Below are positions 14,982 to 64,000 of a stretch of DNA of 64,000 bases, in pieces (the first letter of the stretch is position 1; each line of letters begins with the position of its first letter). This stretch comes from an uncultured Acidobacteriota bacterium (GTDB lineage Bacteria; Acidobacteriota; Vicinamibacteria; Vicinamibacterales; Fen-181). Below the pieces are notes generated by a model. It searched no databases and had not been told where the DNA came from. It saw only the letters and a program-made list of their open reading frames with translations. The translations under genes and the position numbers were made by a program. The stretch is taken from assembly GCA_963701315.1 (NCBI GenBank), contig OY969603.1, positions 5,911,320-5,975,319 of the forward strand, in the 5' to 3' direction.

Positions 14982-16164
14982 ATGACTCGCGTCCTCCCAC
15001 CGCTACTCCTCGGCGGCGCGTTGGTTCGCCCCAGCGACGCCGAGTTGGAGGCTCTCCACCGGCTGGCCGCCGATTGCGAGGACTGGGACGGCCTCGTCCG
15101 GCAGGCCGACGCGCACGGCCTGGCGCCCCTGCTGGCGCGCCATCTTGACGGTGCGCATGTCCAGCTTCCTCGCTCCGCCGCGCGCCTGCTGCGCGCGCTC
15201 CGGGTGATGCATCGTGACGCCAACGCGGCACGCCTGCAGGCGCTCGCCGACATCCTGCGACTGTTCGCGTCTGCGGACGTGGAGAGCGTCGTGCTGAAGG
15301 GCGCGGCCCTCGGGATTCTCGTCTACGGAGATCCCGCCCTTCGGCCGATGTGCGATCTCGACCTGCTCGTGCCGCGGTCCGACGTGCGCCGGGCCCAACT
15401 CCTGCTCGAGCACCACGGGTTTGAACCCTCGTGGACGGAACCGCACCGGAGGAAGTTCGGCGCACACCACCACCTGCCACCCCTCGTCCGTCACGTGGAC
15501 GGGGTCGCGGTCGAGGTCGAACTCCATCACAACGCCTTTCACCTCGATCAGCCCGCGTCGCTCGAGATCGTCCGGGACAACGGAGCGCCGGTGCTCGTTG
15601 GCGCTGACCGCGCTGCGCGGCATGCGGTTCGGACGCAGGACCACCTCGCTTTCACGGTCGACGGCGTGGATGCGCGGACCCTCGGGCCCACCGAGCTGCT
15701 CTGGCACCTGTCGCGAGGCGTGGTCGAACTCCGACAGCCGATGCAGCTGGTGCATGCCGTGGACGTCGTGGAAGTCGCCCGCCAGTACCGAGCAGGTCCT
15801 CGACTGGGACGCGCTGCCGCGATGCCATCCGTGTGTCCTCAGCACCCTGCGGCTCGTCAATCTCGTGCTGCCGTTGCCGGTCGACGTCGCTCGCCACCTG
15901 CCCGGACTCCGCGGCTCGAGACGTCCCGAGGGAATCGGTCAGGACTATACCGGTGCTCCCCTTCGCTCCTCCTGGACCGCCGAGAACGGCGGACTGTCGG
16001 GGTTGATCAAGGACACGCTGTTTCCACCGGAGTGGTGGCTGCGGATGTACTATGCCGAGGGCCTCGCGCCGGGCTGGCGCTGGCCACTGACGCTGCGCCA
16101 TCAGCTGGCCGTCGGCGGGGCCGGCCTACGGCACGCGGCTCGTCAGCTGCGTCGGCACCGGTGA
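14982..16164 (+). pseudogene. PF14907-like 'uncharacterised nucleotidyltransferase', one frameshift as assembled
   Basis: The N-terminal ~268 codons are in the frame of ORF 14982..16457 (KGAALGILVYGDPALRPMCDLDLLVPRSDVRRAQLLLEHHGF). The C-terminal part continues in the frame of ORF 15421..16164 (EQVLDWDALPRCHPCVLSTLRLVNLVL...FPPEWWLRMYYAEG). The +1 shift lies within CAGTACC at 15783-15789. Confidence 0.7.
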
Positions 16165-16196
16165 GGGATCACGACCGCTATCTGGACGGGCCGACC

Positions 16197-16457
16197 ATGA
16201 CCACTCGACCGCGCCGCGTGGCGGCGTACCGGCTGGAACAGCTCGAGAACGAGCTGCTCCTCTACCATCCCGGCCGCACGGTCACGCTCTACTGCAACGA
16301 CACGGCGGCACTCGTCTGGCAGCTGTGCGACGGGACGCTCACCTCGGATCAGATTGCCCAACTGCTCTCCGAGCAGTATCCGGAGGCCTCCGTTGCCGAG
16401 GACGTGCAGGCAACGCTGCGCGCCTTCGCACACCATGGCGCGATTGAGTTCATCTGA
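16197..16457 (+). CDS. PqqD-family protein (RiPP recognition element-like peptide chaperone)
   Basis: ATG at 16197 in the tail of ORF 14982..16457. The 86-aa product, MTTRPRRVAAYRLEQLENELLLYHPGRTVTLYCNDTAALVWQLCDGTLTSDQIAQLLSEQYPEASVAEDVQATLRAFAHHGAIEFI, matches the PqqD pattern. The pattern is a beta-strand, then 'LN.ta..iW.l.dG..t..ei', then a helical end. Confidence 0.75.
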   Translation: MTTRPRRVAAYRLEQLENELLLYHPGRTVTLYCNDTAALVWQLCDGTLTSDQIAQLLSEQYPEASVAEDVQATLRAFAHHGAIEFI

Positions 16458-17301: not shown

Positions 17302-17342
17302 CCACGGGGGCCCGAGGCCACGACCTGGCCGGCCAGCAGCCC

Positions 17343-17798
17343 CTACCGCGGCTGCGGAGTGGCTTCCAGGACGGCGGCCACGAGGTTGGCCGCGTCCCGA
17401 ACGATGCCCGGGCAGATCTCGCGGAAGACTCCTCGGTCACGCGCCGCCTGGAGACGCTCCGGCGTGTCGATTGGCCCGTGAATCAGCTCCCGGCACAGCA
17501 CCGACGGGTGTCGGGCCTCGAACTGCTCGATGAAGTCGTTGATCAGGCGGTAGGTGCGCTCCTTGTCGGCCTCGCCGGAGTTCGCGTGGCCGCGTGCCAG
17601 GCCCAGGACCATCAATGCCCCGGTCACCGCGCCGCACACCTCGCCTCTGCGGGCCATGCCGCCCCCGAAGGCCGACCCGAGCCGCATCGCCGTCTCCGCG
17701 GGAAGCCCGAAGTGGTCGCCAAACGCGCTGAACACGGCCTGCGAGCAGGAAAAGCCCTCGGCGAAGCGCTGCACGGCCACCGCGGATTCGTCCGTCAT
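17343..17798 (-). CDS. C_GCAxxG_C_C-family putative redox protein
   Basis: 151 aa with the family's spaced cysteines: FSCSQAV, CGAVTGA (C-G-A-x-x-G), CRELI and ICPGIV. Its start overlaps the stop of the upstream NHL-like gene (ATGA at 17795-17798). Confidence 0.8.
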   Translation of the reverse strand: MTDESAVAVQRFAEGFSCSQAVFSAFGDHFGLPAETAMRLGSAFGGGMARRGEVCGAVTGALMVLGLARGHANSGEADKERTYRLINDFIEQFEARHPSVLCRELIHGPIDTPERLQAARDRGVFREICPGIVRDAANLVAAVLEATPQPR

Positions 17799-18921
17799 CG
17801 TCCGCCCTCGATTCGACCCGGTCGATCAAGCGACCGCGGGTCGAAGATATCGCACCCAGGCGCCACCAGCAGGTGACCGTCCGCAGCGAAGAAGAGCCCG
17901 GAGGGTTCGATCACGCCTGCCCCGCGAAACTGCACGACGCGCGTGCGATCGCCCTGGGCATCATACACGTACGTCACGGGGACGTGGGCCAACGACACCC
18001 ACAGGCTGCCCGACGCGTCCACGGCGGCGGCGCGGACGAGTTGGGGGACCAGGGGCAGGAGGCGATCCCCGACCTGGCGACGCGGCCACGTGGTCGGCAG
18101 CGCGTTCAGCACGCCGTCGATTTCCCGCCCTTCCACGTGGCGTTCGAACACGACGGCGCCGGCTTCGTCCAGTTTCCGGACCATCGGGCGCCCGGCCTGG
18201 AAGACGAAGTAGAAGCCTCCCTCCGGAGCGACGAGCGGGATGCCGGCGTTGAGCGCGAAGTGGATGTCCGGGTCGTTCTCGAAACCCGTCGCGCGTGGCA
18301 CGCCGATGGCGCGGACGGCTTCGCCCGACACGGTGAACTCCGAGATGAGCGCGCCGCTCTCGGGCAGGCTGACGAACACGGAGCGGCCCCAGGTACCTGC
18401 AGCCATCCCACCCCGCCCACAACGAGGCCGTCGACGATGAACCGTTCGGTCGTGCGGCCCGGCACGGTGAAGCCGCCCAGGAGCGATCCACCTGCCTCGA
18501 ACACCTGGATACGGTCGCGGGCGGCCGGCCGATCGGCGACGGCGAACGTGCCGTTGGGGGAGAGCGCGAAGGCGGTCGGCCCGTAGATCCGACCGGGTTC
18601 CTGCCCGATCCTGACGACCGTCCACGACCCGGTCATCGCGGCGTCGATGCCGTGAACGGTGTGCCCCGCCCGGTCGAACACGTAGAACTGCCCGGAACCG
18701 GCCTGTGCGAATGCGACCACCTCGCGGAAGGTTCCGACGATCTCGGCCGGTACGGCCCGCACGGCGCTCAGCATCTGGACCCGGGAGGTGTCCCGGCCGC
18801 CCTCGACGCGGCCGCGCAGCGAGCGTTCTGGGCCCTGCGGCGCCGGGAGGGCCAGGCAGGCCGACAGCGTCAGGAATCCCCGCCGGGACAGCGAAGGCGA
18901 CGGTGGCTTCGACTCGATCAT
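17795..18921 (-). pseudogene. Tat-exported NHL/TolB-like beta-propeller protein, one frameshift as assembled
   Basis: ORF-track frames 18106..19119 and 17795..18625 join into one product. ATG at 18921, Tat signal SRRGFLTLSACLALPA. Repeated propeller-blade-like segments follow (GQFYVFDRAGHTVHGID, FAVADRPAARDRIQVFE, GGFYFVFQAGRPMVRKLDE, LWVSLAHVPVTYVYDAQG). The frame changes near GGTACC at 18392-18397. Confidence 0.6.
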
Positions 18922-18967
18922 GCTTGGCCAGCGCGCGACGAGGTGTGCCGCCAGGTCCGCCCGGTCT

Positions 18968-21224: not shown

Positions 21225-21240
21225 CTGGCCCACTCCGAGC

Positions 21241-24135: not shown

Positions 24136-24147
24136 GCCCCGGCGCGC

Positions 24148-28167: not shown

Positions 28168-29969
28168 TCACTCCGGGCGGCCCATCGGCGACCCGGGAGC
28201 CGGCGGGGCGCGCCGGACCGCGCCCTCCGAGAAATAGTAGAACCGCAGCCGGCGGATGTCGACCTGGGGAGCGAATCCAGCACCACCTCTTGCGCCGCGC
28301 CGTTGGGCCGGGACGTCAGGATCCCCAGGGGCGTCGTCAGACGGGCGTACCGGGTCGACCGCTGTTCCACGTTGAACTCGTGAAAGTCCCGCGAGAGCAC
28401 GAAGTTGCCCCGGTAGCGTGGCGCCAGGATCGCGACGGAGCGTGGCCCTATCCACCGGATGTCAATCGGCTGGTCCGTCCGCACCATGCGCACGACGGCC
28501 TGGTAGCTGCCCGGCTCGCAGCCGCCGTTCTCGGAGAACGTCTGGTGGTAGAAGTGGCTGTAGACGCCACGCACGCCGACGGGGGCCACCAGGAACACGA
28601 CGTCCCCGCAATCGCAGGACGGAAGGTCGGCGTTGACGAGCGTCGCCGCATCCGATGCCATCGTGGTCGCCCAAGCCCAGTCCGCCCCCTTCACCTGAAC
28701 CTGCCAGACCGAGACGGCGAGTACCGCGGCCACGACTGCCAGTCCAACCCTCCTGGCGCGGCCATTCAGGTCCACGGCGAGCTTCGCGATGCCCAGCGAC
28801 CACCCCACCGACGCGAGGTACATGTAGCGCTGGCCCTCAGTCAGGCTCGAGACCGGCAAGAGTGCTCCCAACGTTCCAACCAGCAAGAAGACCCACCGAG
28901 CGTCTCCGGCCACGGCCCGGCGGCCCCAGAGCAGCAGGGCGCCGCCGACGAGCAGAACGGCCAGTCCCCCACCCCAGTAGACAGCGGTGGCCGGGTCCAG
29001 GAAGAAGGGTGGCGAGGCCGGCGCGATGACCGGTGACGCAAGATAGAAGGCCGAGAATCCGGCGAACGACAGCTTTTCTCGTACCCCGGTGCCGGCCCCG
29101 GGGAACGTGCAGACGTAGGCGAGCGCGGCCAGGACGATCGTGTACCCGGCCAGCACGGCGACAGGTGAGAGGCGCGCCAGGCGGGCGAGAGGGTGCTGCC
29201 ACCGCACGTTCGCCACCCACGCGAGGGCCGCCAGGGACGCGAACAGGGCGACGGCCTTCGGCAACCGGGCCGCTCCTCCGGTTGGATCGAGACCACCGAC
29301 GGCCGCGCGCGTGGCCGCGTAGGCGACGATGACGCCGGCCATCAACGCCAGCACGGCGACGACGCGCCGCGCTGGCGCCCAATCGACGAAGACCAGGTAC
29401 GCCCCGACGATGATCGGCGCCGCGAGCGCGGATTCCTTGCAGAGGAGGGCGAGGGCGAAGGTGGCGAGCCCCAAGCCGATTGCCCGGGCCTCGCGATGGG
29501 TGGTCAGCAGGACGCTCGTCAGGGTGAAGAAGGTGGCCAACAGATCGAAGCGCGCCGAGATCCAGTAGACGGCCTCCTGGTTCGACGTGTGGGCCACGAA
29601 GAGGACCGCCGCCAGCGCCGCCCCCCACCTCGGAAGGATCCGGCGGCCGACCCAGAAGACGAGGACGCCGTTGGCGGCGTGCAGGAGCACATTGGTCAGG
29701 TGAAAACCGGCCGGATGCAGGTGCCAAAGCGACGCGTCGACTGCGAAGGTGAGGAATCCAAGGGGGCGGAAGTAGCTGAAGAAGTCCAGCGCCGTGAAGT
29801 AGGCGGCCGGGTGGGAGAGTCCCCCCAAGCGCTTCAGGTGGTAGAGCACCAGGGCGTCGTCGCCGGCGAAACCGAGCGACAGGGCTCGCCCGTACAAACC
29901 AATCGCCGCAAGCGCGACGAGCCACGGCCACCAGGCCGCCCCGCGCGTTCCTGACGAATCGTGCGCCAC
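28168..29969 (-). pseudogene. GT-C-type membrane glycosyltransferase (PMT_2/DUF1736-like), C-terminal frameshift as assembled
   Basis: ORF 28095..29969 is polytopic with FFSYFRPLGFLTFAVDASLWHLHPAGFHLTNVLLHAANGVLVFWV. Its last ~55 codons have low GC3 and junk-like composition. The frame of ORF 28168..28455 (QVDIRRLRFYYFSEGAV) has coding-like GC3. This implies a missing base near cctgggga (28263-28270) and a true stop at 28168. Confidence 0.6.
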
Positions 29970-32701: not shown

Positions 32702-33668
32702 TCAGGCGCTGAGGTAGCGCGCCCTGAATTCGCCGAAGGTGACCGGCGTGGCGGCCAGGTCCTGGACGGCGAACTCCAGGAACCGTTCAAGCCGATCGAG
32801 GAACGCGGACAGCTCCGGCTGGGTCCGATTGTACGGGCTGCCGCCGACGATGGCTTCGCTCGAGTGGAACAGGACGTTGAGAAGGGGGACGCCGCCCTCA
32901 GCGAGCCGCCGGGCCAGACGCTTCATCTCGTCGAGTGACGAATAGGACGGCCTCAGCCAGAGCATCCGCGCCAGCCCGAGTTTCCGGAGGATCCGCTTGG
33001 TGGTGTAGTTCCAGGGCGCGCGGGCGTAGAGGGTCCTGGAGGTGGGCCGGGTAGCGCCGGTGGAGCGCCGCCGAGACCGGCAGCTCGAGCAGCTGGCTCG
33101 TCCCACGCCGGCACGCGTCGTCGTACGAGAGGAAGTAGGGCTCAAGGGGAGCCTCGACGAAGTCCGGGCCGCCCTTGTGCGCCTCATAGAACAGTGGCGC
33201 GATGCTCGATTCGGTCAGGTAGCCGGCGAGCTCGAGGGCGGAAACGTGGGAGGCGGAGAAGCCGAACCGGCCGGACCGGTACGCCGTGGGCCGCACGCCC
33301 ACCGCCGCCTCGATGCTCTCGGTCAACGTCGTGACCTGGCGGGCGAACCGCGCCGGCGGGAGCGACAGCGCGTAGATGTGGCGCGCCACGTCGGCGGGCT
33401 CGACCGGCGGCGTCTCCCAGGCGTGGTGATGGGCCCCGATCTCGCTGCCCCCGCGGGCGAGGAGCGCCTGGAGCGTCTCGGCAGACCGCGGGTCGGTGGC
33501 CACCGGATAGGTGATGAGATACGTGGGCCGGACCCCCTGACGCGCGAACAGGTCCGCGAGCGCGGGCAGGGCGTAGATGTTCTCGAAGCGCTGGTTCGCG
33601 CGCGAGGCGGCGTCCCACTGGTTGTCGCCCTCGGTATCGATCCCGACGAGGAGGAAGAGGGGTGCCAC
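32702..33668 (-). pseudogene. polysaccharide deacetylase-like (NodB/WalW-type) protein, one frameshift as assembled
   Basis: The N-terminal part is in frame 32898..33668 (LLVGIDTEGDNQW...EIGAHHHAWETPP). The C-terminal part is in frame 32702..33187 (LYARAPWNYTTKRILRKLGLARMLWLRPSYSSLDEMKRLARRLAEGGVPLLNVLFHSSE). A +1 shift near cctggaggtg (33035-33044) joins them. Confidence 0.6.
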
Positions 33669-35634: not shown

Positions 35635-37384
35635 TCAGCGTCGGGGGTACTTGTCGATCAGCACGGCCCGGTCATCACCCGACGGACTTTCCGCGACCGC
35701 GAACTCCCGCAGCACGACCCATCCCGGGCAAGCCGCGAGGATGTCGAGGACGACGGGGTTCTGCGCCTGGCTCTCGTAGCCGAGCGAGGGCTTCTCGTAG
35801 GTCAAGAGGTAGCGGATGTCCGGCCGGTGCGCGCGATCCTCGTAGTTGCCGAAGCCGCGGCCGACGAAGACCGGCCGGATCGTACTCTCGAGCGCGAGAC
35901 CATTGGCCAGCTTGCCCTGCACGAGCGTCCCCGGCGGCAGCCACCGGCCCACCTCCACCATCGCCGTGTAGTTCTCGTATGTACGGATGCGCGCCCACTC
36001 GGCGAACTGCCAGAGGTCGGCGCCCATCAGCGCAAGGCCGAGCGCCAGAGCCCACGCGGGAGTCCACCGGACACGGGCCAACAGCCGCGGCGCGGAGGGC
36101 CACGTGGCACACAAGGCCATCGTCAGGAGGAGTGCGAGAGCGCCCGACCAGCGGACGGCGGCGTGAAACGACCCCGCGTGGATGGTCTCCAGGAACGGGA
36201 GCCTGACGACGGCGCCGACGACCAGGTACAGACATCCGAGCAGGAGCGGCGCGGCCAGCATCGCCCGGACGCGGGACGTGTCGGCCGCATCCTCCCTCAC
36301 GAGGCAGCGGTCGCGCGCAAGGGCAAGAGCGGCCAGTCCCGCGGCGGCCGGGACGAGGAACACCAGCCGCCGCTCGTTCCCGACATCGTGGAGGATCAGT
36401 TCCGAGATGCCGAGCAGGCCCCACAACACGAGGACCCGCTCGGCGGCGGCCGCGCGACGCCAGCGTGTGGCGAGCCCCAACCCGCTCAGGACGGCCAGCG
36501 TGGTCACCGCCCACATGCGTGTGAAGAAGTCGTGGACGATCGGGAACCACGACGCCCGGTCCAGGAACGCCTTGAGCGTGTAGGAGGGCTTGCGCGTCAC
36601 CGACATCTGCCAGTTGTAGAAGCGGTAGTCCGGCCAGTGGGGGCCGACAAACAGCGCGAGGCTCAGCAGGCCGGCCAGCGCGAGGCCGGCCAGCGTGAAC
36701 CAGGCCCCTCGCGCGAGGCCGGTCCTTCGCCGCGCGTCCCCACGGGTCCAGACGATCGCCAGGCAGGCGTCGACCACCAGGGCCGCGAGGAAGAAGATGG
36801 CCGAGGCTTTCGTGAAGTACGCCAGCACGGCCGCGCCGCCGGCGGCCAGGCCCCACGCCGGTGCCGAGGAGGCACGTCCGTAGCAGTACCACGCGGCGAC
36901 GACCAGCGCCACCATGGTGGCCTCCATCAGCGCCGCGCGGTCGTAGCTCACGTAGACGAAGTTGGTTGCCAGCAAACCTGCGGCCACCAGGCCCGCCAGC
37001 CGCCCGCCGATTCGCGAGACGCCGAGGCCGAGTAGCAGTATGGACACGGTGCCGGCGAGGGCCGACACCAGCCTCGCTTGCCACAGCCCCACCCCGAATG
37101 CCCGGAAGCTGGCGTACTCAAGGCCCGTCAGCACCGGCGTGATGTACATCGGGTTCCATCGGTCGAGCGTCCACGTGCCAAAGAGCGCACGGTTCCGCGC
37201 GTTGTGCACCCAGGCGCCCTCGTCGTGCCAGACGACGCCGACGGTCGACCGCCAGGGAGGAATCCGCAAGCGGGAACACGGTTCGCAGCGTCAGCCCGAG
37301 CAACACGAGCGCCAAGAGGCCGGCCGCAAACCGCCAGCGGGCCGAAATCGCGTCCGTCGGGCGGGCGGTGGTGTCGATACTCAC
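35635..37384 (-). pseudogene. GT-C-type membrane glycosyltransferase (ArnT/PMT-like), N-terminal frameshift as assembled
   Basis: The main body is ORF 35635..37269, with the first-loop motif VVWHDEGAWVHNARN. The required first TM helix (RWRFAAGLLALVLLGLTLRTVFPL) lies in the frame of ORF 37118..37516. It starts at GTG 37384, which overlaps the upstream stop (GTGA). Deleting one base of gaatc (37260-37264) joins the frames as ...TVFPLADPPWRSTVGVVWHDEG. Confidence 0.6.
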
Positions 37385-42713: not shown

Positions 42714-44283
42714 TCACTCGGAGGGCAGCGACCCCGACGCCGGCTCGGCTTTGCCGCTCGGTTTCTCGTTCCCGCGGGGAGAGGCCGCGCGGCTCGTCCG
42801 TGCCGACCAGACCGAGTCGAGCATCCGCCGCACCACGGCGAGTTCCTTTCGGTGGAAGAACCCCAGCACCCCGAGCAGGGTGGGGTACAGCACCACCACG
42901 ATCGCCCCGCGCGCCATCACCCCGACGACGGCCAGCCGGACGGGCGGCACGAGGACGGCCGCGACCAGGTACGCACCGACCCCGGCAGCCACGATGCGGG
43001 CCAGGCGTCCCCACTCGTGCGGGACCGGGTAGAAGCGATGCGACAACGCGTAGGCGACGAGGGCCAGCACCGCGTAGGAGATGACGTTGGCCCAGGCGGG
43101 CCCGATCATGCCGAAGCGGGGAATGAGGACGATGTTGGCCAGGATGTTCGCAACCGCGGCCGCCGCGGCCGCCAAGGGGTAGGTACTGCGTGTGCCGGGT
43201 GATGTTCATCCCGATCGAGGTGAGCAGGTAGACCCCCTGCAGGGTGACCGCGATGGTCGTCCACGGCACGACGACCGCCGCCTCGTGGAACTTCGCCTGC
43301 GTCATGAGCCGCACGAGGTCGTGCGCGACAGCCGACAGGCCGGCCGAGAGCAGGACCAGCACCGCCACGCCGTAGGTCGTGATGAGGGCGAAGGTCCGCG
43401 GTGCGTCCTTCTCCTTCATCGTCTGGAAGTAGAACGGCGCCCAGGCGTATTCGAACGCACTCAGGAAGAACTTGAGCGCGAGCCCGAGGCTCGAGCCGAC
43501 CTGGTACAGCCCGATGGTCCGGAGGTTCTGCATGCCGCCGCCCACCAGGAGGACTCGCATCAGGTAGGCGTCGGTCGCGGGCCCCACGATCTGCTGCGCG
43601 ATGCCATGCGGCACGCGCGGGAGGCCGAACCGGAGGACTTCGCCCAGGGTCTGCCACGAGAAGGTCTGGCGGATGAGCGGGACGAACCAGCGCAGGAGGA
43701 CGACGGCGAACGCGACCGTGATGACCAGCTCCGAGAGCACGAGGCCCATCACGCCGTAGCGCAACCCGACGACGAGCACCACGCGAGCGGCGACCGTGGT
43801 CGCCGACCGCGCGAAGGTGAGCACGGAGAACCGCCGGGCCTGGTTCCGGATCCGGAAGACGTGGAACGGGAGGAAGAAGAAGCCGCCGACGAAGGTGCTG
43901 AGGATGGTCAGCTGCAGCGCGAGGGTCTGGCCTTTCACCTGGAAGTAGCGCTCGGAGTAGAGCGGAGCGGCCAGGAGCGCGGCCAGGAGGATCGCCCCGT
44001 TGGCGGCGACCAGGAAGAAGAAGATCGTGCTCGCCAGCCGCTGGCGCGCGCGATCGTCGTCGCAGTCGTAGAAGAACCGCATGAACGACGCGTCGACGCC
44101 CCAGCGAAACACGATCTTCGCGACGAGGCTCGCCGTCAGCAACATGGCCCAGATGCCGTACCAGACTGGGTCCAGGTACTTCGTGAACAGCGGCATCAGG
44201 AGGAAGCTGACGATGTGCGTCGCGACGTCACCCATCCCGTAGACCGCGAGGTTTGTGCTGAGCGTCTTGAGTTTCTGGAGCAC
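42714..44283 (-). pseudogene. Wzx-type oligosaccharide flippase (MOP/polysaccharide biosynthesis protein family), one frameshift as assembled
   Basis: ORF 42691..44283 is flippase-like up to ...GMNITRHTQY. It continues in frame 42714..43175 (AAAAAAVANILANIVLIPRFGMIGPAWANVISY). The shift lies in or next to ggtactg (43182-43188). Confidence 0.7.
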
Positions 44284-47725: not shown

Positions 47726-50700
47726 CTACCGAGCTAGGAAGGCTGGCGTCGCGTCGCCGCCACGCCAGAACTGCCCCGAGCCGGCCACGCGGGTCCAGTA
47801 GACGGCCTCCTCGACGACGATCGGCAACGGCGTCGCGTCGGAGCTGACGACCTTGGTCGAGAAGGCGTTGCTCACGATGTTGCTGAACACCGGGCCGTTG
47901 GCCGGCACCTGGTTGTTCATCCACAGCGTGCGCCGTGTCTTGGCCGGGATCACAATCGTCTGCGTGGCCGTGGTCCCCGCATCCGAGTAGGTGGTCAGCG
48001 TCACCGTGACCGGCGAGGTGTTGAAGTTCGCCAGCAGGATGTACGTCTCGTAGCCACTCATGGTGGAGCCCTCGGGCACGTGCCACTCGATGCCCTGCGT
48101 CTCCGCTCCCATCGCGGTCGAGCCCTCGGTCCACCCCGTGCCCCAGTACATCGAGCGCTCGACGACGACCGACGCCCCGCCTTCCGTGTGGAACTCCGCG
48201 GCGACGCCCGTCTGGGTGCCCGAGACCTGGTTGGCCAGGTAGAGGGTCCGCCTGGTACTGGGTGCCAGCGTGTAGCTGGTCGTGACAGGCGTCTGCGCCA
48301 CGCCGTTGACGGGGGCGAGGTTGTAGGTCGCGTCCACCGTCACACTCGTCGCATTCGGGTTGAAGAGCAGGTAGTAGGTGTTGAACCCGGTCATCGCCGT
48401 GCCCTCGGCGAAGTACCAGTCGGGGCCCGCCGCCGGACTCCCGATGGCGTCGTGGCCGCCGCTCCAGTTGGTGCCCCAGTACATCGTGCGCTCCGCGAGC
48501 ACGCCCACGGTGGACGTCACCAGCGCGGCGAAGTTCTTGCCGGCCAGCGCGGCCACCTGGTTGGCGGCCAGGGTCCACCGGCTCTGTTTCGCCACCGTCT
48601 GGGTCACGCTGGTGATGACACCCGTCCCGTCGTCCGCCACGAACTGGACGGTGACCGTCGCGTCGGTCTGGGTCGGGTTGAACACGATGTAGTACGTGTC
48701 GAACAGCCCGCCCGGCGTCGTCAGCCGGGTCCCTTCCGCGAAGTACCACTGGGTCGGCAGCGTGCCGCCCGCGGGCACGTACCAGCCGGTCTTGACGTGC
48801 CCCGCGCCCGACAGCAGGCCGGACGCACCGCCCCAGTACATCGTGCGCGCGACGTAGATGGGCAGGCCGGACGGAATGTTCTCGGCGGCGTCGGGCACCG
48901 ACTGGATGACGATGGCGTACGAGCCGGTGACCCCGTTGACCAGCGTCGACAAATCCACCGTGGCGCGGCTCTGCGCCGGGACCGTCGCCTCGACGAAGGT
49001 CGGCTGCGTCACACCCTCCTGCACCACCCACGCCCGGACCCGTACCGGGCTGCTGTTCTCGTTCGCGATGAGGTAGTAGGTGCTGAACCCGTTCGTTCCG
49101 CCCACCGCGCCTTCGGCGAACACCCAGCTGCCACTGGGCGCGGTCGCGGCCGACAGGTCGATGACCGCCGGATCGTTGACCGAGAAGCTCCACCAGGTGC
49201 CCGCGTCAGCCTCGCGCGTGGTGGTCGTCGTCGCCCGGACCTGCCAGTAGAACGTACCCGACCCAAGGCCTGACAAGGTCGCCGAGGTGGCCGTGCCCAT
49301 GTTGATCCAAGCCGTGTGGCACACGTTGTCGGTCGTGACGCCCACGCACAACTCGAATGCGGCGCCGTTCACTGCCGACCAGCTCAGCGTGACGGGGTTG
49401 ATACCGAGAGAGTCGCCGTTGGCTGGCGACACCTTCCCGAAGGTGGCCGCCGCGGTACCAACCGTAAAGACATTCCAGGTGCCGTTGTCCGCGTAGACCG
49501 AAGAGCCGCTCACCGTGGCGCGCACCTGCCAGTAGTAGGTGCCGGCCGTGAGCGTGCGGCCCGTCGCCGTGGAAGCGGCGTTCGACTGCCATGCGGTGTC
49601 GCAGGCCGGGCCCGTCGTCGTCACGCAGACGTCGTAGTTGGTCGCGCCCGTCGCGCTGCCCCAGTTCATCGGCACGTAGGTGGCAAGGCCCGTGGCGCCG
49701 GCGGCGGGCGCGGTCTTGGTGAAGGCCGGCGTCGGGACCGTGAAGCTCCACCACGTCGCGCCGTCCGCGTCGGTGGTGGTGGTCGAGGTCACCGCCCGCG
49801 CCTGCCAGTAGTAGGTGCCGGGCGCCAGGCCCGTCATCGCGACCGACGTGGCGGAGGTGGAGAACCATCCCGTGTGGCAGGTCCCGTCGTGCGAGGTCCC
49901 CACGCACACCAGGTAGCTCGCGCTGGTGACCGTGGCCCACGAGAGCGTGACGAGGTTGCCGGTCAACGCGGTGCCGCTGGCCGGCGCGCTCTTCGCGAAC
50001 GGCGGCGGGCCGACGATGAAGGTCCACCAGGTGCCGCCATCCGCGTAGATGAGGGAGCTGTCAACCGTGGCCCGCACCTGCCAGTAGTAGGTGCCGTTGC
50101 TCAGGCTGGAGAAGGTCGTCGCCGTCGACTGGCCGTTGGGCTGCCAGGACGTGCTGCAGGAGGGTCCGGTCGACGACATGCAGAACTCAAACGCGGGGGT
50201 CGTGCCGACCGTCGCCCATGTCACCGGCACGCTGGAGGTGAGATTGGCCGTCCCGTTCGTCGGCGTCGACTTGCCGAACGACGGTCCGGCCTGCGTGGTG
50301 AAACTCCACCAGATGCCGGAGTCGGCGTCCACCCAGGACCCGTTCACGTCGGCCTGCACCTGCCAGTAGTAGGGGGTGGCCGCTGCGAGCCCAGACACAT
50401 TGGCCGTTGTCGCCGTTCCGGTGGAGACCCAGGAACTGCCGCAGGTGCCGTTCGTCGTGCCGATGCAGTACCTGATACGCGGTGGCGCCCGTCGCAACGC
50501 CCCAGGTCAACGTCACGGGGACCGAGACGCCGGAGGCGCCGTTGCCCGGCGACGACTTGGCGACGCTCCCCACCGTCGGCTCGCGGGAGCTGGTCGTGAA
50601 GAACTCGTACCACATCGACGAGTTGCCGTTGTCGGTCACCAGGATCCATTGCGCCTGCGTCGGGTTCGCGGCGATCGCGGGGTTGAAGACCCCGGCTCCG

Positions 50701-53289
50701 CCGAGCGAGACGGTGAGGCCGCCGCTGTTGAGCGTGCCGTCCTGGTTCAACTCGAGGACCGCATCCTCGGCCCCGCCGGCGTAGGTCACCAGCGCAAACG
50801 TGTTGGAGACGGGGTTGTAGGCCATCCGCCGCAGCGCGTCGCCCCCACCGTAAGAGGTCGATACCGCGAACGCTGAGCCGTCGAACGAGCCACTGGCGGT
50901 GTAGCGTTGCGCGTAGATGCCCGCGGCCGACGAGTCTCCCGCGCCAGGCTGGAGGTAGAAGACCTGGACCGACTTGCCCGTGGCCGAATTGTAAGCGACG
51001 TCCCCTCCGTACAGGGACGTGCCGGACACGACCCCGTTCAGGACCCGCATGGCCAAGCCGATGGGGCCGGCACCGGTTCCTGCCTGCACCCATCGGGCTT
51101 CGATGAAGTTGTACGTCAAGGCCGAGCCCTGGTAGCCGACCAGGAAGCGGTCCGTCGTGGGGTTGTAGGCGACGGCCGACCGGTCATGGCTGGATGAGTC
51201 CGTCGTAATCGACAGGTCGCTGCCGAGGAGCGTCCCCGTGTCGCCGATGAGGCGGCCGTGGATTTCACCGTCGTTGATCTGCGGCCACGTGACCAGGTAC
51301 TGGTGACTGACCGTGGAGTAGCTCAGCCCCGGGCGGGTCTTCCACAGGACCCCGGCGCCAATCGCGCTAATGGAGAAGTCCCCCGAGACGAAGGTGGGCA
51401 CCCCGTTGCCGAGCGCCACCACACGCCCATAGAGGTCAGGGTAGCGTACCGTTGTTGCGGTTGTCCGACCACACCACCAGGCACGACCCGGCGCTCGGGC
51501 TGCACCAGACCTTGGGCGTCTGCGCGTAGACGGTGCCGCTGTCGATGCGGAAGGCGCTGGACGCCGGGGTCCCGTCCGGGCGGATAAAGACGCCCTGGAT
51601 GAACCCCTCGCCCGTGAGCGCGAGGTAGACACCGTTCACCGACTCATAGGCCACTTCCGGTAAGACCAGGCCCCCGCTGATGCCCTGCGCCTCAGAGGCC
51701 GACCCCGACCACGAGAGCTGCCCGGCCCCGGCGCCCTGCGTGAGGAAACTCCACCAGCCGCCGGTCGCGTCCGTCCAGGACCCGCTCACCTGGGCCTGGA
51801 CCTGCCAGTAGTAGGTTGTGCTCGCACTGAGGTTGGAGACCTGGGCCGACAGCGAGGTCCCCGCCGACTGCCACCCGGTGTCGCACGTGCCGCCGCTCGT
51901 CATCGTGACGCAGACCTGGTAGGCCGTGGCTCCCGTCATCGCGCTCCACGAGAGCGTGGTTGGAGTCGAGATCCCAGTCGAGCTGTTGTCCGGCGACAGC
52001 TTGTAGAATGACGTCTGGCCGACACCTCCCCCTTCACGCGTTCCCGACTGGACGAACTGGCCCCAGAACGACGAAAAGCCGTTGCTGGTCACGATCAGCC
52101 ACTGGGCCTGCGCCGGGTCGGCCGCGATCGCGGGGTTGTAATTCCCCAAGCCGTCGTTGATGTTGGTGGCGATGATGCCATTGTCGACCGGGGTGCCGTC
52201 ATGGTGCAGCTCGATCACCGCGTCTTCAGTGGTCGAGCTGTGCGTCGCCATCACGAACGTGTTCGTGTAGGGGTTGTAGTCGGTCCGCATCGCGTCGTAG
52301 GCGCCGTAGCCATGTGCCGTCGCGACCAGGAATGGCGTGCCATCCAACGAACCATCGACGTTGAAGCGCTGGGCATAGGTGCCGAGGACGTTCGGGTCTC
52401 CCGTCCCGGGCGAGTACCTGAAGAACATGAGAAGCTTCCCGGTCGTCGTGTTGGTCACAACGTCACCGCCCCACACGTCCGTCAGGGGTACCACGCCGTT
52501 CATGATCCGCAGGGCCGGTCCGGCGACGGCCGGCTGCGTCCCGGCCTGGACCCATCGCGCCTCCTGGAAATTCACTCCCGGCTGGGAGCCGTCATAGCCG
52601 ACTAGGAACCGGTCCGTCGCGGGGTTGTAGGCGGCCGCTGTCTGGTTGTGGAAGTTGCCGTCCGCCTGTATGGCGACCACACCGCCGATGAGCTGTCCGG
52701 TGTCGCTGACGGCCCGGCCACGGACGCTGCCGTCGGAGGTCTGCCGCCAGGTGACGAAGTACTCGTGGCTGGCCGTGGAGTAGGCCAACCCGGGCCGTCC
52801 ATCCTCCCACCAGACCCCCGCGCCAATGATGCTAATTGGAAAGTCGCTGGTCACGAACACCGGGGTCGATCCGCTGATGGACACGATGCGGCCATATAGG
52901 TCTGGAGGCCCGTTCCCGACGATGTTCCGGCCGTCCACCCAGACCACCAGGCACGACCCGGCGGCCGGATTGCACAGGGTCCGTGTCATCTGCGCGTAGG
53001 CCGTGCTGCTGTTGATTTGAAAGGGAGCCGTCGCAAAGGTCCCGCTCGGGTTGATGTAGCGGCCCCGGATGATGCCCGCGCCGGTCGTGGTCAGGTAGAC
53101 GTTGTGCGAGGCATCGTACGCGATGTCCGGCCAGCGGATGCCGCCCGCAAGCGTCGGGATGTTGAACGAACTGCCCACGTCCGACACCTGCGCCCACGCT
53201 GTACCGGTGGCGACGATCGACAGGGTGAGCAAAACGGCCGCGACATAGGTACGGGCAACGGTCGCCTGGCGTAGATGGGCAACCAGCAC
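47726..53289 (-). pseudogene. giant (~1850 aa) secreted repeat protein: 2 propeller-like modules, 6 Cys-pair FN3-like repeats, 4 'WYFAEG' repeats; two frameshifts as assembled
   Basis: Three ORF-track pieces (51436..53289, 50187..51632, 47726..50497) join exactly at repeated sequence. SCLVVWSDNRNNGT/PDLYGRVVALGNG parallels SCLVVWVDGRNIVGNGPPDLYGRIVSISGS, and GATAYQV/CIGTTNGTC parallels GATAYQVCVTMTSGGTC. The shifts lie at gtac 51446-51449 (or the T giving the TGA at 51436-51438) and at cagtacc 50466-50472. The signal peptide is AAVLLTLSIVATGTAWA-Q. An AAGGAGG lies before GTG 53289. Confidence 0.7.
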
Positions 53290-55448: not shown

Positions 55449-56287
55449 TTACGGTTTGGCGTGATCCGATCCGAGGACAACCCTGGGCCGGCCCCTGGAC
55501 CACTCCGTGAGCGCACCACCAAACCTGTACCGAAGCAGGTGGACGAAGAACTCGAGGCACGCCGAGGGGCGCACGTGGCTCAGCCCGTTCGACCGCATCC
55601 GCGCGAAGACGTTCATTTCGAGGACCCGGACGCCGAGGTAGTGGGCCTTGATCATCATCTCCGGGTCGATGAACCAGTTCTTCGACTGCAGGTCCATCTC
55701 CGCGAGCACCCGACGATGCAGGATTCTTGGGGCTGCCGTTGACGTCGGCCGACCCGAGGCGCGGCCAGAGCAGCCAGACGAAACCGTTGTAGAGGACCGA
55801 CACGACCTTGCGCGTGACGCCGTCCATGCGGAAACGGCGTCGGACCTTGCCGAGGACGTTCCCGTCGGTGTGCTTGAGTACTTCGAAGAGCCGCGCCGCA
55901 TCCTCGGCGTCCACTTGCCCATCCGCGTGGATGATGCCGACCCAGGGCGCCGAGCAGACGGGAATCGACTGCAGGACCCCGTTGCCGTAGCCTTCGTTCC
56001 GCTCGACTCGGTGGTAGACCACCGGCAGGCCCTCGGCGACGAACCCCTTGATGACCTCGCCCGTGCGATTCTGTGGACCCGTTGTCACAGGCGACCAGCT
56101 CGAGGCGGTGTCCGGCTTGCGCGAACGCCTGCAGGAGGCGAGGGATCGTGTACGGGATCACGTCCTGCTCGCAGTAGCACGGCATGATCAGCGAGATTTC
56201 GGACGCTGCGTCCGCGCTTTCGCAGGCCGCTCCTGTGAGCGCGGACTGTTGATTGAACCGGTCGGCGGCGCCGGTCTCACTGGGCAT
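55449..56287 (-). pseudogene. GT2 glycosyltransferase (Dpm1/polyprenyl-phosphate-sugar-synthase-like), two frameshifts as assembled
   Basis: Three frames join. ISLIMPCYCEQDVIPYTIPRLL...LELVACDNGST is in frame 55655..56287. DRTGEVIKGFVAEGLPVVYHRVERNEGYGNGV...GIIHADGQVDAEDAARL...DVNGSPK is in frame 54748..56088. ILHRRVLAEMDLQSKNWFIDPEMMIKAHYLGVRVLEM is in frame 55449..55922. Deleting one T from gattc at 56067-56071 and from gattc at 55722-55726 restores a single frame. Confidence 0.7.
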
Positions 56288-57569: not shown

Positions 57570-58524
57570 TCAGAGACCGATAATCTTCCCAATCCAGAGC
57601 GGGGAGTCCTTGCGGGGGAGGTCGCAGCCCTGACAGATTCTGGGGCCCGCCGTGCTCGAGATGCTCCCGTCGCACCCGCCGGTAGGCGTCGCCTTCCCAG
57701 ATCTCGAGCAGCGTCGACTCGCGCGCGTCCCCGAGGATGACGCGACCATCGAAGTCGGCGCAGCAGAGCGAGACACGGCCGTCCCACAGGACCGTGAGCG
57801 TGAGCCACGGGCGATAGCAGGGGTAGCGGACGGCGCTCTCCCGGTTGAGCGTGCCCGCCCAGTTGTGGAGGTCCGTGACGTGGATCTTGTCGGCGATGGT
57901 CCGCCAGTGATCGATGAACGCCTGCTCCTCGGCCCCGTCGCCCTGGCGCACGAACGACAGGATCAGCTTGGGACAGGTCCTGCCGAGCTCCGTCCGCACC
58001 CGCACGAGCCGTTCGATGTTGGCGATGACCTTGTCGTACTTGAGGCCCACGCGCGTCCGCTCGAACACGTCGCGCCCGGCCGCGTCCACGCTGATGTTGA
58101 TGGCGTCCAGGCCGGCTGCGACCACGTCGTGTGCGACCTGTTCGTCGATGAGGGACCCGTTGCTGATTACGCCGACCTCAGCGATGCCCGCCTGCTTCGC
58201 GTAGGCGACCTTGCCAGCCAGGCCGCGGTCCACGAACGGCTCGCCGTAGTTGTGCAGCCGGACGTGCCGGATCCCAAGGGCGGCACACTGATCGACCACC
58301 CGGCGGTAGAGGCTCTCGTCCATCACGCCCTGCCGTCGGTGCATCTGGTCGCGCGGGCAGAACACGCAGCGCGCGTTGCAGATGTTCGTGCTTTCGATTT
58401 GGACGATCTCGGGCAGCCCCGGGGCGCGGTCGCGCCCGGCGCGCAGGAGGACCCGCCGGACCAGTCGGGCCCGCGACAGGAGGAGTTTCTCGACGCCGCT
58501 TCGGATGGATGTCCTGACGCTCAA
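57570..58524 (-). pseudogene. radical SAM / SPASM-domain protein, one frameshift as assembled
   Basis: The N-terminal ~295 codons of ORF 56188..58524 carry IESTNICNARCVFCP...PCYRPW...LCCADFDG...REHLEHGGP. The true C-terminus, ICQGCDLPRKDSPLWIGKIIGL, is in frame 57570..57776. Deleting one T of gattc (57636-57640) joins them. The remaining ~480 codons of the 778-aa ORF are read-through junk. Confidence 0.7.
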
Positions 58525-58541
58525 CGCCCCCGCGCCCTCCG

Positions 58542-59505
58542 TTACTTCCCTTGAAAATAGTCAATCACGCGCGCGAGGATCTCGTCCAGCTGCACCTTTG
58601 GCTCGTAGCCGATGAGTTCTCGGAGGCGCGAGATGTCGGGCACGCGCCGCGGCATGTCCTCGAAGCCGGCCTCGTAGGCCTGGTCGTACGGAATGGTTAC
58701 AATCGGCGAGTCGCTGTTGGCGAGCTCTTTCACGCGCTGGGCGAGATCGCGGATCGTGATCTCCTGGCCGTTGCCGATGTTGAACACGCACCCCACCGCG
58801 CGCGGCTCCTGCGCCAGCGTGACGAGCGCCTCCACCACGTCGCCCACGTACGTGAAGCTGCGGGTCTGGGTGCCGTCGCCGTAGACGGTGATCGGCTGCC
58901 CGGCCAGCGCCTGCCGGACGAACGTCGGGATGACCATCCCGGTACTGCCCCGTCTGCCGCGGTCCGACGGTGTTGAAGAGCCGGACGATCACGACGGGGA
59001 GCTTTTTCTCCTTCCAGTACGCCAGCGCCAGGAACTCGTCGATGGCCTTGCTGCACGCGTAGGCCCAGCGGTGTTTCACCGTGGGCCCGAGCACCAGGTC
59101 GGCATCCTCGGTGAATGGCACCGCGGCGTTCTTGCCGTACACCTCGGAGGTGGACGCGATGATGACCAGCTTCTTCTTCTTGTTGGCGTGCGTGAGCACC
59201 ACCTCGGTGCCCTTGACGTTCGTCTCGATCGTGTGGACGGGCCGCTCGACGATGAGCTTGACCCCGACGGCGGCCGCCAGGTGGAAGACGACATCGCTCC
59301 GATCGACGAGCTCGGCGAGGACCGGTTCGTTGGTCACCGAGTCGATCGTGTAGTGGAACTTCGCGTGTTCCTTGAGATGGGCGATGTTGTCGATCGACCC
59401 GGTCGAGAGGTCGTCGAGCACGTAGGGTTCGTGCCCGAGGAGGAGCAGCCGCTCGGCCAGGTGAGACCCGATGAACCCGGCACCGCCGGTGATCAACGCG
59501 CGCAT
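58542..59505 (-). pseudogene. NAD-dependent epimerase/dehydratase (UDP-glucuronate decarboxylase/dTDP-glucose dehydratase-like SDR), one frameshift as assembled
   Basis: ATG at 59505. MRALITGGAGFIGSHL and the catalytic YACSKAIDE are present. NTVGPRQTGQY is in frame 58561..59760, then GMVIPTFVRQALAGQPITVYGDGTQTRSFTYVGDVV is in frame 58542..58937. Removing one base of ggtactg (58941-58947) restores the family motif GPRQ...YGMVIPTF. Confidence 0.8.
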
Positions 59506-59560
59506 GTGGCAGTCCTTGCAAGTGAGTGACGAGCGCCGGCGTGCGCCCCCAGTTCCGGTC

Positions 59561-61408: not shown

Positions 61409-62622
61409 CGGAGCGACTCGGTCAGGGCCCGCCCGCCGCGGGCGAGCAGCGCGACCGCCGCCTCGTACACCGCGTCGGTGTCGACCGAGGCCAGACAGTC
61501 GGGGACGTGGCCGCGGCACCGTGCGGGCGGCCGGCGGATCCGGTTGCACGGGCTGCACGGCAGCGACACGCGGACGACGCGGGCGGCGGAAGACACCGGG
61601 CCCCAGCGCGACGGGTCGGACGGGCCGAAGACGGCGACCATCGGGATGTCGAGCGCAGCGGCCAGGTGCATGGGCCCGGTATCGCCTGTTACGAGGAGGT
61701 CGACCCGCTCGAGCACCGCGGCGAGCGTCACCAGGTCGGCCCGGCCGACGAGGTCAATCACATCGATTCGCGGGCCGAGCGCCTGCCTGACGGTCTCGAC
61801 GGCAGCACGGTCCTGGGCGGTGCCCGTCAGCACGAGGTCCACGCCGTGCGAAGCCGCCAGCCGGACGGCGACCTCGGCGAACCGGCCGAGATCCCACTGC
61901 TTGATCTCGCGGCCGCCGCCGGCGTGAATGGCCACCAGGGGCCGCCCCGACCCATGCGAGGCCAGCAGCGCCTCGGCACGCGCGCGCGCGTCGGCGGGGA
62001 CCGTCAGCCGTGCGGCTGGTGGAGATGTCAAAGGGGCCCCGTCACGCGGCAGGTCGAATGCCCGTTCGACCAGGCGCAGGGCGTTGGCGTGCGTGTGCAG
62101 GCGTGCGTCGAACGGCACGCGGTCGGTCAGCATCGGACCGCCGCCGGCCATGTCGAAGCCGACGCGGCGCCGGGCCCCCGAGAGCCCAATCAGCACGTTG
62201 CTCCGGATGTCGCCCTCGAAGTTGATCGCGAGGTCATAGTGCCTCTCGCGCCAGGACCAGGCTCGCGACACCAGCTGACGCCATGAGCCGGCTGGCGCCT
62301 CGCGGGCGAGCCAGTTGGCGTTGAGCGTCTCCACGCGAGTGGACGCCGGGATGAGCTTCGCCAATCCCTCGTTCCAGCTGCCGACCACGAGATCGATCTG
62401 CGCCGACCTCGCGCACGACCGAACCGCGACCAGCGCGTCGAGGGTCATCAGCAGGTCTCCAACTCTCTCCAGGCGCAGCAGCAGGATCCGGAGCGGTTCT
62501 CCGTCGCGGTCGCGTCGTGGCCGCGGTCCGCGGAGGACCGGCGCGACCGCGGCGAGGCCGAGGTCGGCCACGCCGACCAGCCAGCGCTCGCGCGGATCGG
62601 AGAGCTGCAGATGTGGGAACAC
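61405..62622 (-). CDS. glycosyltransferase family 9 (heptosyltransferase-like)
   Basis: 405 aa with ILLLRLERVGDLLMTLDAL near the N-terminus and the C-terminal motif LLVTGDTGPMHLAAALDIPMVAVFGPSDP. Confidence 0.8.
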   Translation of the reverse strand: MFPHLQLSDPRERWLVGVADLGLAAVAPVLRGPRPRRDRDGEPLRILLLRLERVGDLLMTLDALVAVRSCARSAQIDLVVGSWNEGLAKLIPASTRVETLNANWLAREAPAGSWRQLVSRAWSWRERHYDLAINFEGDIRSNVLIGLSGARRRVGFDMAGGGPMLTDRVPFDARLHTHANALRLVERAFDLPRDGAPLTSPPAARLTVPADARARAEALLASHGSGRPLVAIHAGGGREIKQWDLGRFAEVAVRLAASHGVDLVLTGTAQDRAAVETVRQALGPRIDVIDLVGRADLVTLAAVLERVDLLVTGDTGPMHLAAALDIPMVAVFGPSDPSRWGPVSSAARVVRVSLPCSPCNRIRRPPARCRGHVPDCLASVDTDAVYEAAVALLARGGRALTESLR

Positions 62623-62635
62623 CGCCGACTCCCGC

Positions 62636-64000
62636 CTATCTTACTTCGACCCGGTCCACCATCACGCCCAGCTGCCGGCCGTCGTTGACGCCGAGGGCGT
62701 CCCTGGGGATCCAGGTGGACGAGACGATCCGAAGGAGGGCCGGCTCGTCGCGGCCAGCGGCGGCGGCCGCCACGTCGGGAGGGATCGAGAACGCGTACGG
62801 GTGAAAGCCGTCCTTCACGACGACCGCGCCCAGGGGTCGGTCGTCGAGCGTGAGCGAGACCGTGGCCGCTCCCGCCGACGCCGGCCGCCCCCCGTCACCC
62901 ATCCACAACGTGAGCGTGCGCGCCGCCCGGTCCATCGCCGGAATCGACAGGTAGGACACGCCGCCCGTCCACCGGAACGTCAGGTCGCCGAGGTGCTCCT
63001 TCGCGTTGAACCGCACGACGTACAGGTCGTCGTAGCTGCCGATGTCGAGCGAGAAGGGTGCGGGGTGCGCCGGCGGAATCGACGAACCGGTAGACGCTGA
63101 AGTCGAACTCCTTCCACCGGGCGCCTGTCGGATAGGCGTTCCGCACCGACTGGTACTCGGGCACCTGGAACCGTTCGGTGGCGACCGGTGCCACGGCCAC
63201 GGACCGCAAAGCCAGGTCGGTCCCGCCGCTGCCGACGAAGTAGACGTTCCGGTAATGTGTCCGCGCCCAGAGCAGGAAGTGGCTGAACGCGGGCCGGTTC
63301 GGGCGCGGCGAGTTGAGCACCAGCACGTTGCGGGCGTAGACGTAGGCGAGCGGCAGGGCGGCCACGTGGAGATCGGAGCGGGACCCCCGGCTCTCGACGA
63401 GCACCAGGTCGTCGTCGCCGAACCGCTTGGCCAGTTGCTCGAGCTGCGGAATCAGCCCTTGGTATTCGACGTGGTGCCAGACCGGCTCGCTGGCGCGCAC
63501 GAGCAGCCAGCCGACCGCGACGACGAAGGCCACGGGTGCCGCCAGCTGCGCCGCGCGCGCCAGCCTGCTCAGGCCGCCGCCCCGAGGCCGGGTCTCGCCG
63601 TCGGCGTCTCGGCGCCACCAGATGGCCGGGAACGCCCCGGCCGCGAGGAGCACGAACGCCGAGGGCAGGATGACGGGCAGGAAGCGTCGCGTCATCCAGA
63701 AATGTTCCGGGTACAATCTGAATCTTGTAGAACACGAAGAAGCCGTACACGGCGGTGCCGAGCAGGAACAGCGGATCGCGCCAGAAGCGTTTCCAGCAGA
63801 GGAGCACGAAGCCGGCGACGGCCACGACGAGACCCGCCCACGGGAAATACCAGGTGAAGGTGCGCAGGGAGTAGGCGTCGTGCGGGGCCAGCGGGCCGCC
63901 CGGCTTTCTGAAGAATGCCGCGTACACGACTGCGACCACCACCGCGGCGGCAATGACGAGCGGGGCCCGCGCCACCGCGCGCGCGGCGAGCCGAGTGCGG
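62636..64000 (-). pseudogene. C-terminal part of a polytopic GT-C-like membrane protein (5' end beyond window), at least two frameshifts as assembled
   Basis: Frames 62980..63975 (LVIAAAVVVAVVYAAFF...GTAVYGFFVFYKIQI), 62895..63953 (YPEHFWMTRRFLPVILPSAFVLL...KEFDFSVYRFVD) and 62636..63016 (PAPFSLDIGSYDDLYVVRFNAKEHLGDLTFRW...) form one colinear product. The shifts lie at gtac/gaatc 63711-63724 and at gaatc 63076-63080. The frame is still open at base 64000. Confidence 0.5.

Follow-up and report, generated by a model that had tools for sequence, protein, structure and literature searches.

The deposited genome of an uncultured Acidobacteriota bacterium, 7,039,462 bp in one contig with 68.4% G+C, contains many protein genes whose reading frames are broken by small insertions or deletions. 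We analyzed fourteen such breaks in one 64,000-nucleotide stretch (G000:C1:5911320-5975319, hereafter the window, meaning the whole stretch) and followed the pattern over the entire contig. The frame breaks are very probably consensus errors of a long-read-only assembly and not gene decay, and the genes would be intact in the organism; the basis of this reading is sequence statistics together with comparisons to relatives. Several hundred spurious single bases are present in the file, ∼90 per Mb, or about one gene in ten, and ∼70% of these bases follow two rules. By the first rule, GTAC is written as GTACC or GGTAC, mostly AGTAC as AGTACC, and sometimes a base is added on both sides (GGTACC). 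By the second rule, GATC is written as GAATC or GATTC, mostly AGATC as AGAATC. The frame breaks are a quality problem of the sequence file, an artefact of a known general kind, and not a biological feature. The completeness score of this genome is only 91%, despite the closed contig.

Frame switches across the genome

Coding frames were assigned with a codon log-odds table trained on 1,209 long, high-GC3 open reading frames of this genome, using a seven-state Viterbi parse (one non-coding state and six frames) over the entire 7.04 Mb contig. A junction was called with high confidence if the frame switched more than 45 nucleotides (nt) before the stop of the upstream frame, with both segments at least 150 nt in length and no gap between them. 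A motif was counted as associated if it was located no more than 12 nt from the Viterbi switch; random coding positions served as background.

The parse gave 3,014 same-strand frame changes on the contig, most of which fall on the stop codon of the upstream gene and are ordinary gene boundaries. High-confidence, frameshift-like junctions numbered 649 (92 per Mb over the whole 7.04 Mb) and are evenly spread, with 5–28 per 200 kb across the 7 Mb. Most of them, 552, are of the +1 type; the other 97 are of the -1/+2 type. GTAC is present at 306 of the 649 junctions (47% versus 5.6% in the background, P = 2e-198), and AGTACC/GGTACT at 174 (37-fold). GAATC/GATTC is present at 133 junctions (20% versus 2.5%, 8.4-fold, P = 6e-79), and AGAATC/GATTCT at 76 (28-fold). 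An earlier, sequence-only reading of the window had suggested such a genome-wide count, and for GTAC and GAATC/GATTC the outcome was strongly positive.

The motifs are located close to the switches. Of the 352 nearest copies of GTACC/GGTAC, 221 are no more than 5 nt away from the predicted switch. Counted from the motif side, 11.4% of the coding copies of AGTACC and 9.3% of those of AGAATC are on a switch, compared to 0.8% of random coding positions. The 5′ neighbour has a strong effect, the share being 2.9% for CGTACC and 1.0% for TGAATC. GGTACC double events were found at 35 junctions, where 2.6 were expected; the deletion-type junctions at GTAC are thereby accounted for as double insertions. 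GTAAC/GTTAC showed no enrichment at junctions genome-wide, indicating that the base doubled at GTAC is C or G.

Several other contexts were tried and rejected. Runs of five or more identical bases showed no association with the motif-class junctions genome-wide; only the motif-free, deletion-type class has a mild excess of such runs (12% versus 4%), so homopolymers leave the bulk of the junctions unexplained. The sequence-only reading had listed CCWGG together with GAATC/GATTC and GTAC; the first of these three did not hold up. Its excess is only 1.4-fold and arises because GTAC with an extra C followed by TGG creates CCTGG. It occurs at 24 of the 190 junctions that carry neither GTAC nor GAATC, which is the background level, its distance profile is flat, and 1.0% of its copies are on a switch. 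GGWCC looked suggestive by eye in the related genome G005 and at position 33035 of the window, but it is also at the genome-wide baseline (1.0% versus 0.8%), and AGGACC is only 3.5-fold enriched in the residual, motif-free class. GAGCGA is mildly enriched among the motif-free insertion junctions (12 versus 3.7) and may represent a third error motif, an asymmetric one. For GATC, GTAC, GAATC and similar words, no visible excess emerged from raw k-mer counts and Markov expectations; this test is insensitive, because the errors are too few relative to the genuine copies of the motifs.

As a control we used G013, a fragmented, short-read-like assembly (90 contigs, 100% complete). A scan of 432 kb of it gave 4 junctions (9 per Mb), with GTAC or GAATC at none of them, and by this measure ∼90% of the 92 per Mb found here is excess. 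The contiguous assemblies G002, G003, G005, G007, G012, G014 and G015 (2–20 contigs), six of the same genus as this genome and G015 of another genus of the family, carry 50–300 frameshift-like junctions per Mb, many of them at AGTACC/GGTACT. The two motifs found here also predominate at the junctions of at least six contiguous assemblies of the family (G014, G012, G005, G003, G007 and G002) and are weaker in G015. G009, an assembly of 7 contigs, has few such errors and is much cleaner, like G013.

Four points weigh against the artefact reading or narrow its reach. About 27% of the junctions carry neither motif. Judged from G013, ∼10% of all calls may be false positive or natural. The call at 3640 of the window proved to be false; it falls in the Pro/Gly/Arg-rich tail of nuoM, whose overlap with the start of nuoN is of the normal ATGA type. 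Finally, the reading is inferred from comparative and statistical evidence.

Frame breaks in the window

The sequence-only reading had reported fourteen single-base frameshifts in the window. All fourteen strings that it quoted were found at their positions, and Viterbi switches, Pfam matches and relatives agree with the breaks (Table 1). A same-strand Viterbi switch is located 0–5 nt from 12 of the 14 sites; it is 17 nt off at 37260 and 62 nt off at 50466. Twelve of the breaks are extra bases at two palindromes, GTAC at seven sites and GATC at five. The GTAC sites are written GTACC or GGTAC, once with a base on both sides (GGTACC), and the GATC sites are written GAATC or GATTC. The remaining two breaks, at 28263 and 33035, are unrelated indels. 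Most lesions are of one base as reported, except that two bases were gained at 18392, one on each side of GTAC, and that 28263 is a net loss of one base.

Table 1. Positions and lesions of the fourteen frame breaks (window coordinates; the sense strand is that of the gene)
Gene	Position	Strand	Lesion	Viterbi switch
PF14907 nucleotidyltransferase gene	15783..15789	+	CAGTACC, GTAC with an extra C (+1)	15787
NHL-repeat protein gene	18392..18397	-	GGTACC, GTAC with a base added at both ends (net +2)	18394, class -1/+2
GT-C-like membrane protein gene, near 3′ end	28263..28270	-	Net -1, sense CTCCCCAGG	28264, deletion-type
Polysaccharide-deacetylase-like gene	33035..33044	-	+1 within sense CAGGACCCTCTAC, away from GTAC and GATC	33031
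GT-C-like gene, near 5′ end	37260..37264	-	Sense GATTC for GATC/GACC of relatives (+1)	37243
Wzx-type flippase gene (PF01943)	43182..43188	-	Sense CAGTACC, GTAC with an extra C (+1)	43180
Giant repeat protein gene	50466..50472	-	Sense GGTACTG, extra G before GTAC; + strand CAGTACC (+1)	62 nt downstream
Giant repeat protein gene	51446..51449	-	Beside GTAC; + strand CGTACC, sense GGTACG (+1)	51442
GT2 glycosyltransferase gene, second break	55722..55726	-	Sense AAGAATCC versus AAGATCG in G026 (+1)	55723
Same GT2 gene, first break	56067..56071	-	Sense ACAGAATCGC versus GCGATCGC in G026 (+1)	56071
Radical SAM gene, SPASM end	57636..57640	-	Sense CAGAATCTG (+1)	Segment ends 57631/57632
SDR sugar-nucleotide epimerase/dehydratase gene	58941..58947	-	Sense CAGTACCGG versus CAGTACGG in relatives (+1)	58939
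GT-C-like gene	63076..63080	-	Sense GTCGATTCCGCC versus GATCCGCC in relatives (+1)	63079
Same GT-C-like gene as at 63076	63711..63724	-	Sense GTACCCGGAA, one base longer right after GTAC (+1)	63712

In DNA alignments with relatives, this genome has one base more at 33035, 37260, 43182, 57636, 58941, 63076 and 63711, and two bases more at 18392. At nine sites of the window, the extra base is absent from the GTAC or GATC of relatives. At 18392, the window reads CAGGTACCTGG and G013 reads CAG--TACGG. The GATTCC at 37260 corresponds to GCCGA-TCCGCC in G003 and to GCCGA-CCCGCC in G002. In the Wzx gene, CAGTACCTACCC at 43182 is aligned to GAGTA-CTACCC in G005 and G007 and to GGGTT-CTACCC in G002; the identical extra base is also present in G003. 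The radical SAM gene is one base longer at 57636 than three of the four aligned relatives (G005, G002 and G003), which are shorter and continue with ...ICxxCD. At 58941, the relatives read CAGTA-CGG in 10 of 10 sequences of one DNA alignment and in 6 of 6 of another. At 63076, the window has GATTCC for GATCC, the corresponding sequences being GTCGATCCGCC in G005 and GTGGATCCGCC in G003. At 63711, four relatives read GTxCCC-G.

The protein evidence agrees. The PF14907 match of the nucleotidyltransferase spans the junction at 15783; homologues of this protein are uninterrupted in G013 and G022, and in this genome they are matched by two pieces (1–206 and 205–317). Likewise, PF00535 runs through the 56067 junction of the GT2 glycosyltransferase (protein 2–133, profile 1–129), which is encoded in a single frame in G026 (79% identity, query 1–220) versus three pieces here. 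The SDR gene has an intact frame in 20 relatives and consists of two overlapping pieces here; PF16363 spans its 58941 junction (8–316 versus profile 1–331/332). The SPASM match of the radical SAM protein is cut at position 55 of 67 of the profile by the 57636 junction. The comparison with orthologues, which the sequence-only reading had also suggested, came out in favour of assembly error, both in the relatives without the extra base and in the uninterrupted SDR, GT2 and nucleotidyltransferase frames.

For the giant repeat protein the comparison is internal. The alignment of its module 2 with module 1 (E = 1e-136) passes straight through the 51446 junction. The module 2-to-module 1 alignment ends at ...ATAYQV, exactly at the 50466 break, and the repeat pattern Y-Q-x-C, as read from the sequence, is regained in the shifted frame. 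At 15783, 50466 and 51446, GTAC plus one base is consistent with the protein evidence.

Three sites differ from what the sequence-only reading had made of them. It had linked 28263 and 33035 to CCWGG. The simplest account of 28263 is the loss of one base from a run of C; the alignment to G002 is weak there, and with a GAATC located 2 nt away, a double insertion is also conceivable. At 33035, the extra base is located in GGACCCTC, and G002 and G003 are one base shorter there. At 63711, where both GTAC and GAATC had been named, the extra base is beside GTAC; the GAATC at 63720–63724 (sense AAGATTCAG) is genuine, because G003 has the same AAGATTCAG in frame.

Two of the affected genes have further features. 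With its breaks bridged, the giant gene (47726–53289 of the window, minus strand) encodes a secreted repeat protein that contains two modules of ∼390 residues, 49% identical to each other, followed by several Cys-containing repeats of ∼88 residues (Y-x-[VLF]-C ... W-Q); repeated 'YWG' units occur in its C-terminal part. The PF14907 nucleotidyltransferase gene is the first of three on the plus strand at 15005–17301, followed by a small gene (MTTRPRR...AIEFI) and a P-loop gene (GKTTLAAWL). We tentatively take the small product to be PqqD-like and the P-loop product to be HPr-kinase-like; the trio resembles the accessory genes of lasso-peptide or RiPP clusters.

Base modification or sequence context as the trigger

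The error would arise on the read strand at these contexts and survive the consensus at a few percent of sites, by our estimate ∼3% of the GTAC sites and ∼0.5% of the GATC sites. The two strands would err independently, which would explain the presence of the extra base on either or both sides. The most likely trigger would be base modification, and the doubled base could be the modified one: N6-methyladenine (m6A) in GATC, placed by a Dam-family enzyme, and N4-methylcytosine (m4C) in GTAC, placed by an SPPY-type beta-class enzyme. One rule might then cover both motifs, the modified base being called twice (A in G-A-TC, C in GTA-C). For GATC, we lean slightly towards the view that the error pattern reveals methylation; for GTAC, we lean slightly away from it, and the basecaller or polisher may instead err at these contexts independently of modification, above all at GTAC.

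GTAC and GATC are both palindromic tetranucleotides, the kind of site that is recognised by methyltransferases. The sequence-only reading had looked to Dam-like, GTAC-specific and Dcm-like enzymes; Dam-family and SPPY-type beta-class genes are present in the genome, and no Dcm-like gene was found. The Dam-family gene is located at 368488-369474. Its 283-residue product scores 163.6 bits with TIGR00571 (cut-off 114.85), contains a DPPY motif, and has DpnM, E. coli Dam and T4 Dam as its best solved relatives. The beta-class gene is small and encodes a TSPPY motif (G000:C1:2173548-2174450, plus strand). The TSPPY enzyme is shared, at 61–82% identity, by 20 of 30 relatives from across the order, and no adjacent nuclease gene was seen; it looks like a conserved orphan methyltransferase. 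A third gene, G000:C1:6836171-6842019 (minus strand), encodes a 925-residue, Mod-like beta-class methyltransferase with a DPPY motif; it immediately follows a co-oriented 3-kb gene, with which it may form a type III restriction-modification pair. Searches of the closed contig for C5 methylase (PF00145) and PF02384 genes found neither; the lack of the first fits the lack of a CCWGG signal. The structure search shows that 1EG2 is M.RsrI and not the GTAC enzyme M.RsaI, and no solved GTAC enzyme is among the matches.

Other observations weigh against the modification step. Across the relatives, the error motifs do not track the presence of these two methyltransferases; other enzymes might be involved. 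G014 and G012 have neither a D12-class gene nor a TSPPY orthologue, their only enzyme being CcrM-like (3e-59 to 6PBD), and in them AGTACC is present at 37% and 20% of the junctions and GAATC/GATTC at 22% and 12%, respectively. G015 possesses orthologues of both enzymes, yet AGTACC is present at only 8% of its 52 junctions. In addition, the modification-induced errors described for R10.4.1 data are substitutions (C>T, G>A), not insertions (PMC11610603). The proposal of the sequence-only reading that the errors reveal the methylome is not established, as the same AGTACC and GAATC junction motifs occur in G014 and G012, which lack both enzymes.

It is rather unlikely that the methylome can usefully be read from these insertions, with the doubled base marking the modified base. 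If it can, the Dam-family enzyme at 368488-369474 is predicted to produce G-m6A-TC, and the TSPPY enzyme at 2173548-2174450, or another enzyme shared in the family, is predicted to produce GTA-m4C. The frameshift motifs of long-read metagenomes could then be mined for methylation motifs, and even for the modified position, without raw data.

The main competitor concerns only the cause, and leaves the breaks an artefact: AGTAC and AGATC would be mis-called whatever the methylome. We consider such a context error a serious candidate, if somewhat short of an even chance. It would account for the same two motifs in at least six contiguous assemblies of the family regardless of their methyltransferase genes, and for the strong dependence on the 5′ neighbour (AGTACC over CGTACC, AGAATC over TGAATC). 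However, both contexts are the kind of palindrome that methyltransferases typically target, the share of the motif varies by genome (AGTACC from 8% of the junctions in G015 to 37% in G014), and the 7-contig relative G009 has few such errors. A generic fault at two common tetranucleotides would also be expected to have been trained out and widely reported, and we found no such report in the literature.

Biological alternatives and comparison with known systems

Consensus error, whatever its trigger, has to be weighed against two readings in which the extra bases are present in the organism. In the first, the breaks are genuine mutations, that is, real pseudogenes or population heterogeneity in a polysaccharide gene region. 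The breaks do stand in the deposited sequence, and 11 of the 14 are located at 33–64 kb of the window, where surface-polysaccharide functions, which frequently vary, are encoded. The sequence-only reading had pointed to this concentration in what it called an island. Against it, the window is not exceptional: it has 10 high-confidence junctions, 9 of them real; the genome averages 5.9 per 64 kb, and at least 10 are found in 14 of its 109 bins. Its junction density is within the genome-wide range, and the junctions are evenly spread over the 7 Mb.

The region itself is also found in relatives. The array of GT-C, Wzx, radical SAM and SDR genes at 31–64 kb is syntenic with G002:C8, G003:C6, G005:C1 and G007:C3 at 70–80% DNA identity, and is therefore not a strain-specific island. 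The GT2 gene (55535–56197) is an exception to this synteny; it was found only in the more distant G026 (79%) and G028 (31%), which suggests that it was inserted locally.

The sequence-only reading had also found the core genes that it checked to be free of shifts. Elsewhere in the genome, core genes carry the same lesions. The bamA product matches TIGR03303 across a junction at AAGTACC, and the clpA product matches TIGR02639 in one stretch (1–699) across a junction at GGTACT. Another gene is broken at AGAATC; we take it to be the alanyl-tRNA synthetase gene (alaS), as read by eye from the sequence without a family search. An organism with frameshifted bamA and alaS would not be viable, and real decay is thereby ruled out as a general explanation. 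No mutational process known to us would insert single bases specifically next to GTAC and within GATC. Taken together, these observations make genuine mutation very improbable. The central proposal of the sequence-only reading, motif-linked assembly error rather than decay, is borne out by the enrichment of both motifs, by the relatives without the extra base and by the affected bamA.

In the second, programmed +1 recoding, sites of the CAGTACC and AGAATC types would be read through by the cell despite their extra base; the preponderance of +1 shifts (552 of 649) at recurrent heptamers would suit it, but orthologues in relatives without the base encode the same residues, ∼89% of the coding AGTACC copies are in frame with no shift, and GTACC occurs in both orientations to the coding strand (172 sense, 144 antisense), which is impossible for a ribosomal signal, so that recoding is effectively refuted by strand symmetry and its probability is negligible.

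Consensus error thus being the preferred reading, its consequences are practical. The genome is the species representative in a one-genome-per-species collection, with about one gene in ten split by spurious bases. These bases inflate pseudogene counts, lower the completeness estimate (91%) and corrupt protein databases derived from the file. The polysaccharide genes of the window (GT-C, GT2, Wzx, radical SAM/SPASM, SDR and giant repeat protein) are to be treated as intact. Targeted clean-up or flagging of this and related long-read assemblies could be based on the two rules (C or G added next to GTAC, A or T doubled within GATC). Modification as the cause is a modest methodological question; the analysis serves to flag the quality of this genome and of its long-read relatives.

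Like the Dam enzymes of the D12 class (DpnM, 2DPM; E. coli Dam, 2G1P; T4 Dam, 1YFJ), the 283-residue protein of this genome passes TIGR00571 and has the DPPY motif. Different from E. coli Dam, it is below the equivalog cut-off of NF008152 (100.8 versus 441 bits), and its specificity is only predicted. Relatives without a D12-class gene still show GAATC/GATTC junctions.

Liu et al. (2024, Genome Res, PMC11610603) described strand-specific, systematic, modification-induced errors in both the reads and the assemblies of Oxford Nanopore R10.4.1 data. Like those errors, the insertions reported here are bound to short motifs of methyltransferase type such as GATC, would originate on one strand, survive long-read polishing, persist in the assembly, and differ in degree between organisms. 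Different from those errors, which are substitutions, they are insertions of one base, and GTAC is not among the motifs validated in that paper. For insertion-type errors at GATC or GTAC, our literature search gave general reports of modification-linked and low-depth errors, not this exact signature.

In long-read metagenome assemblies of low depth, residual indels cause frameshifts (review PMC13543314; high-GC case study PMC11649196). The classical residual errors are homopolymer deletions, whereas 85% of the junctions here are insertions, unassociated with runs of five or more bases. In other respects this genome resembles such assemblies: it is long-read-only and high in G+C, and its frameshifts inflate the gene count and lower the apparent completeness (91% here).

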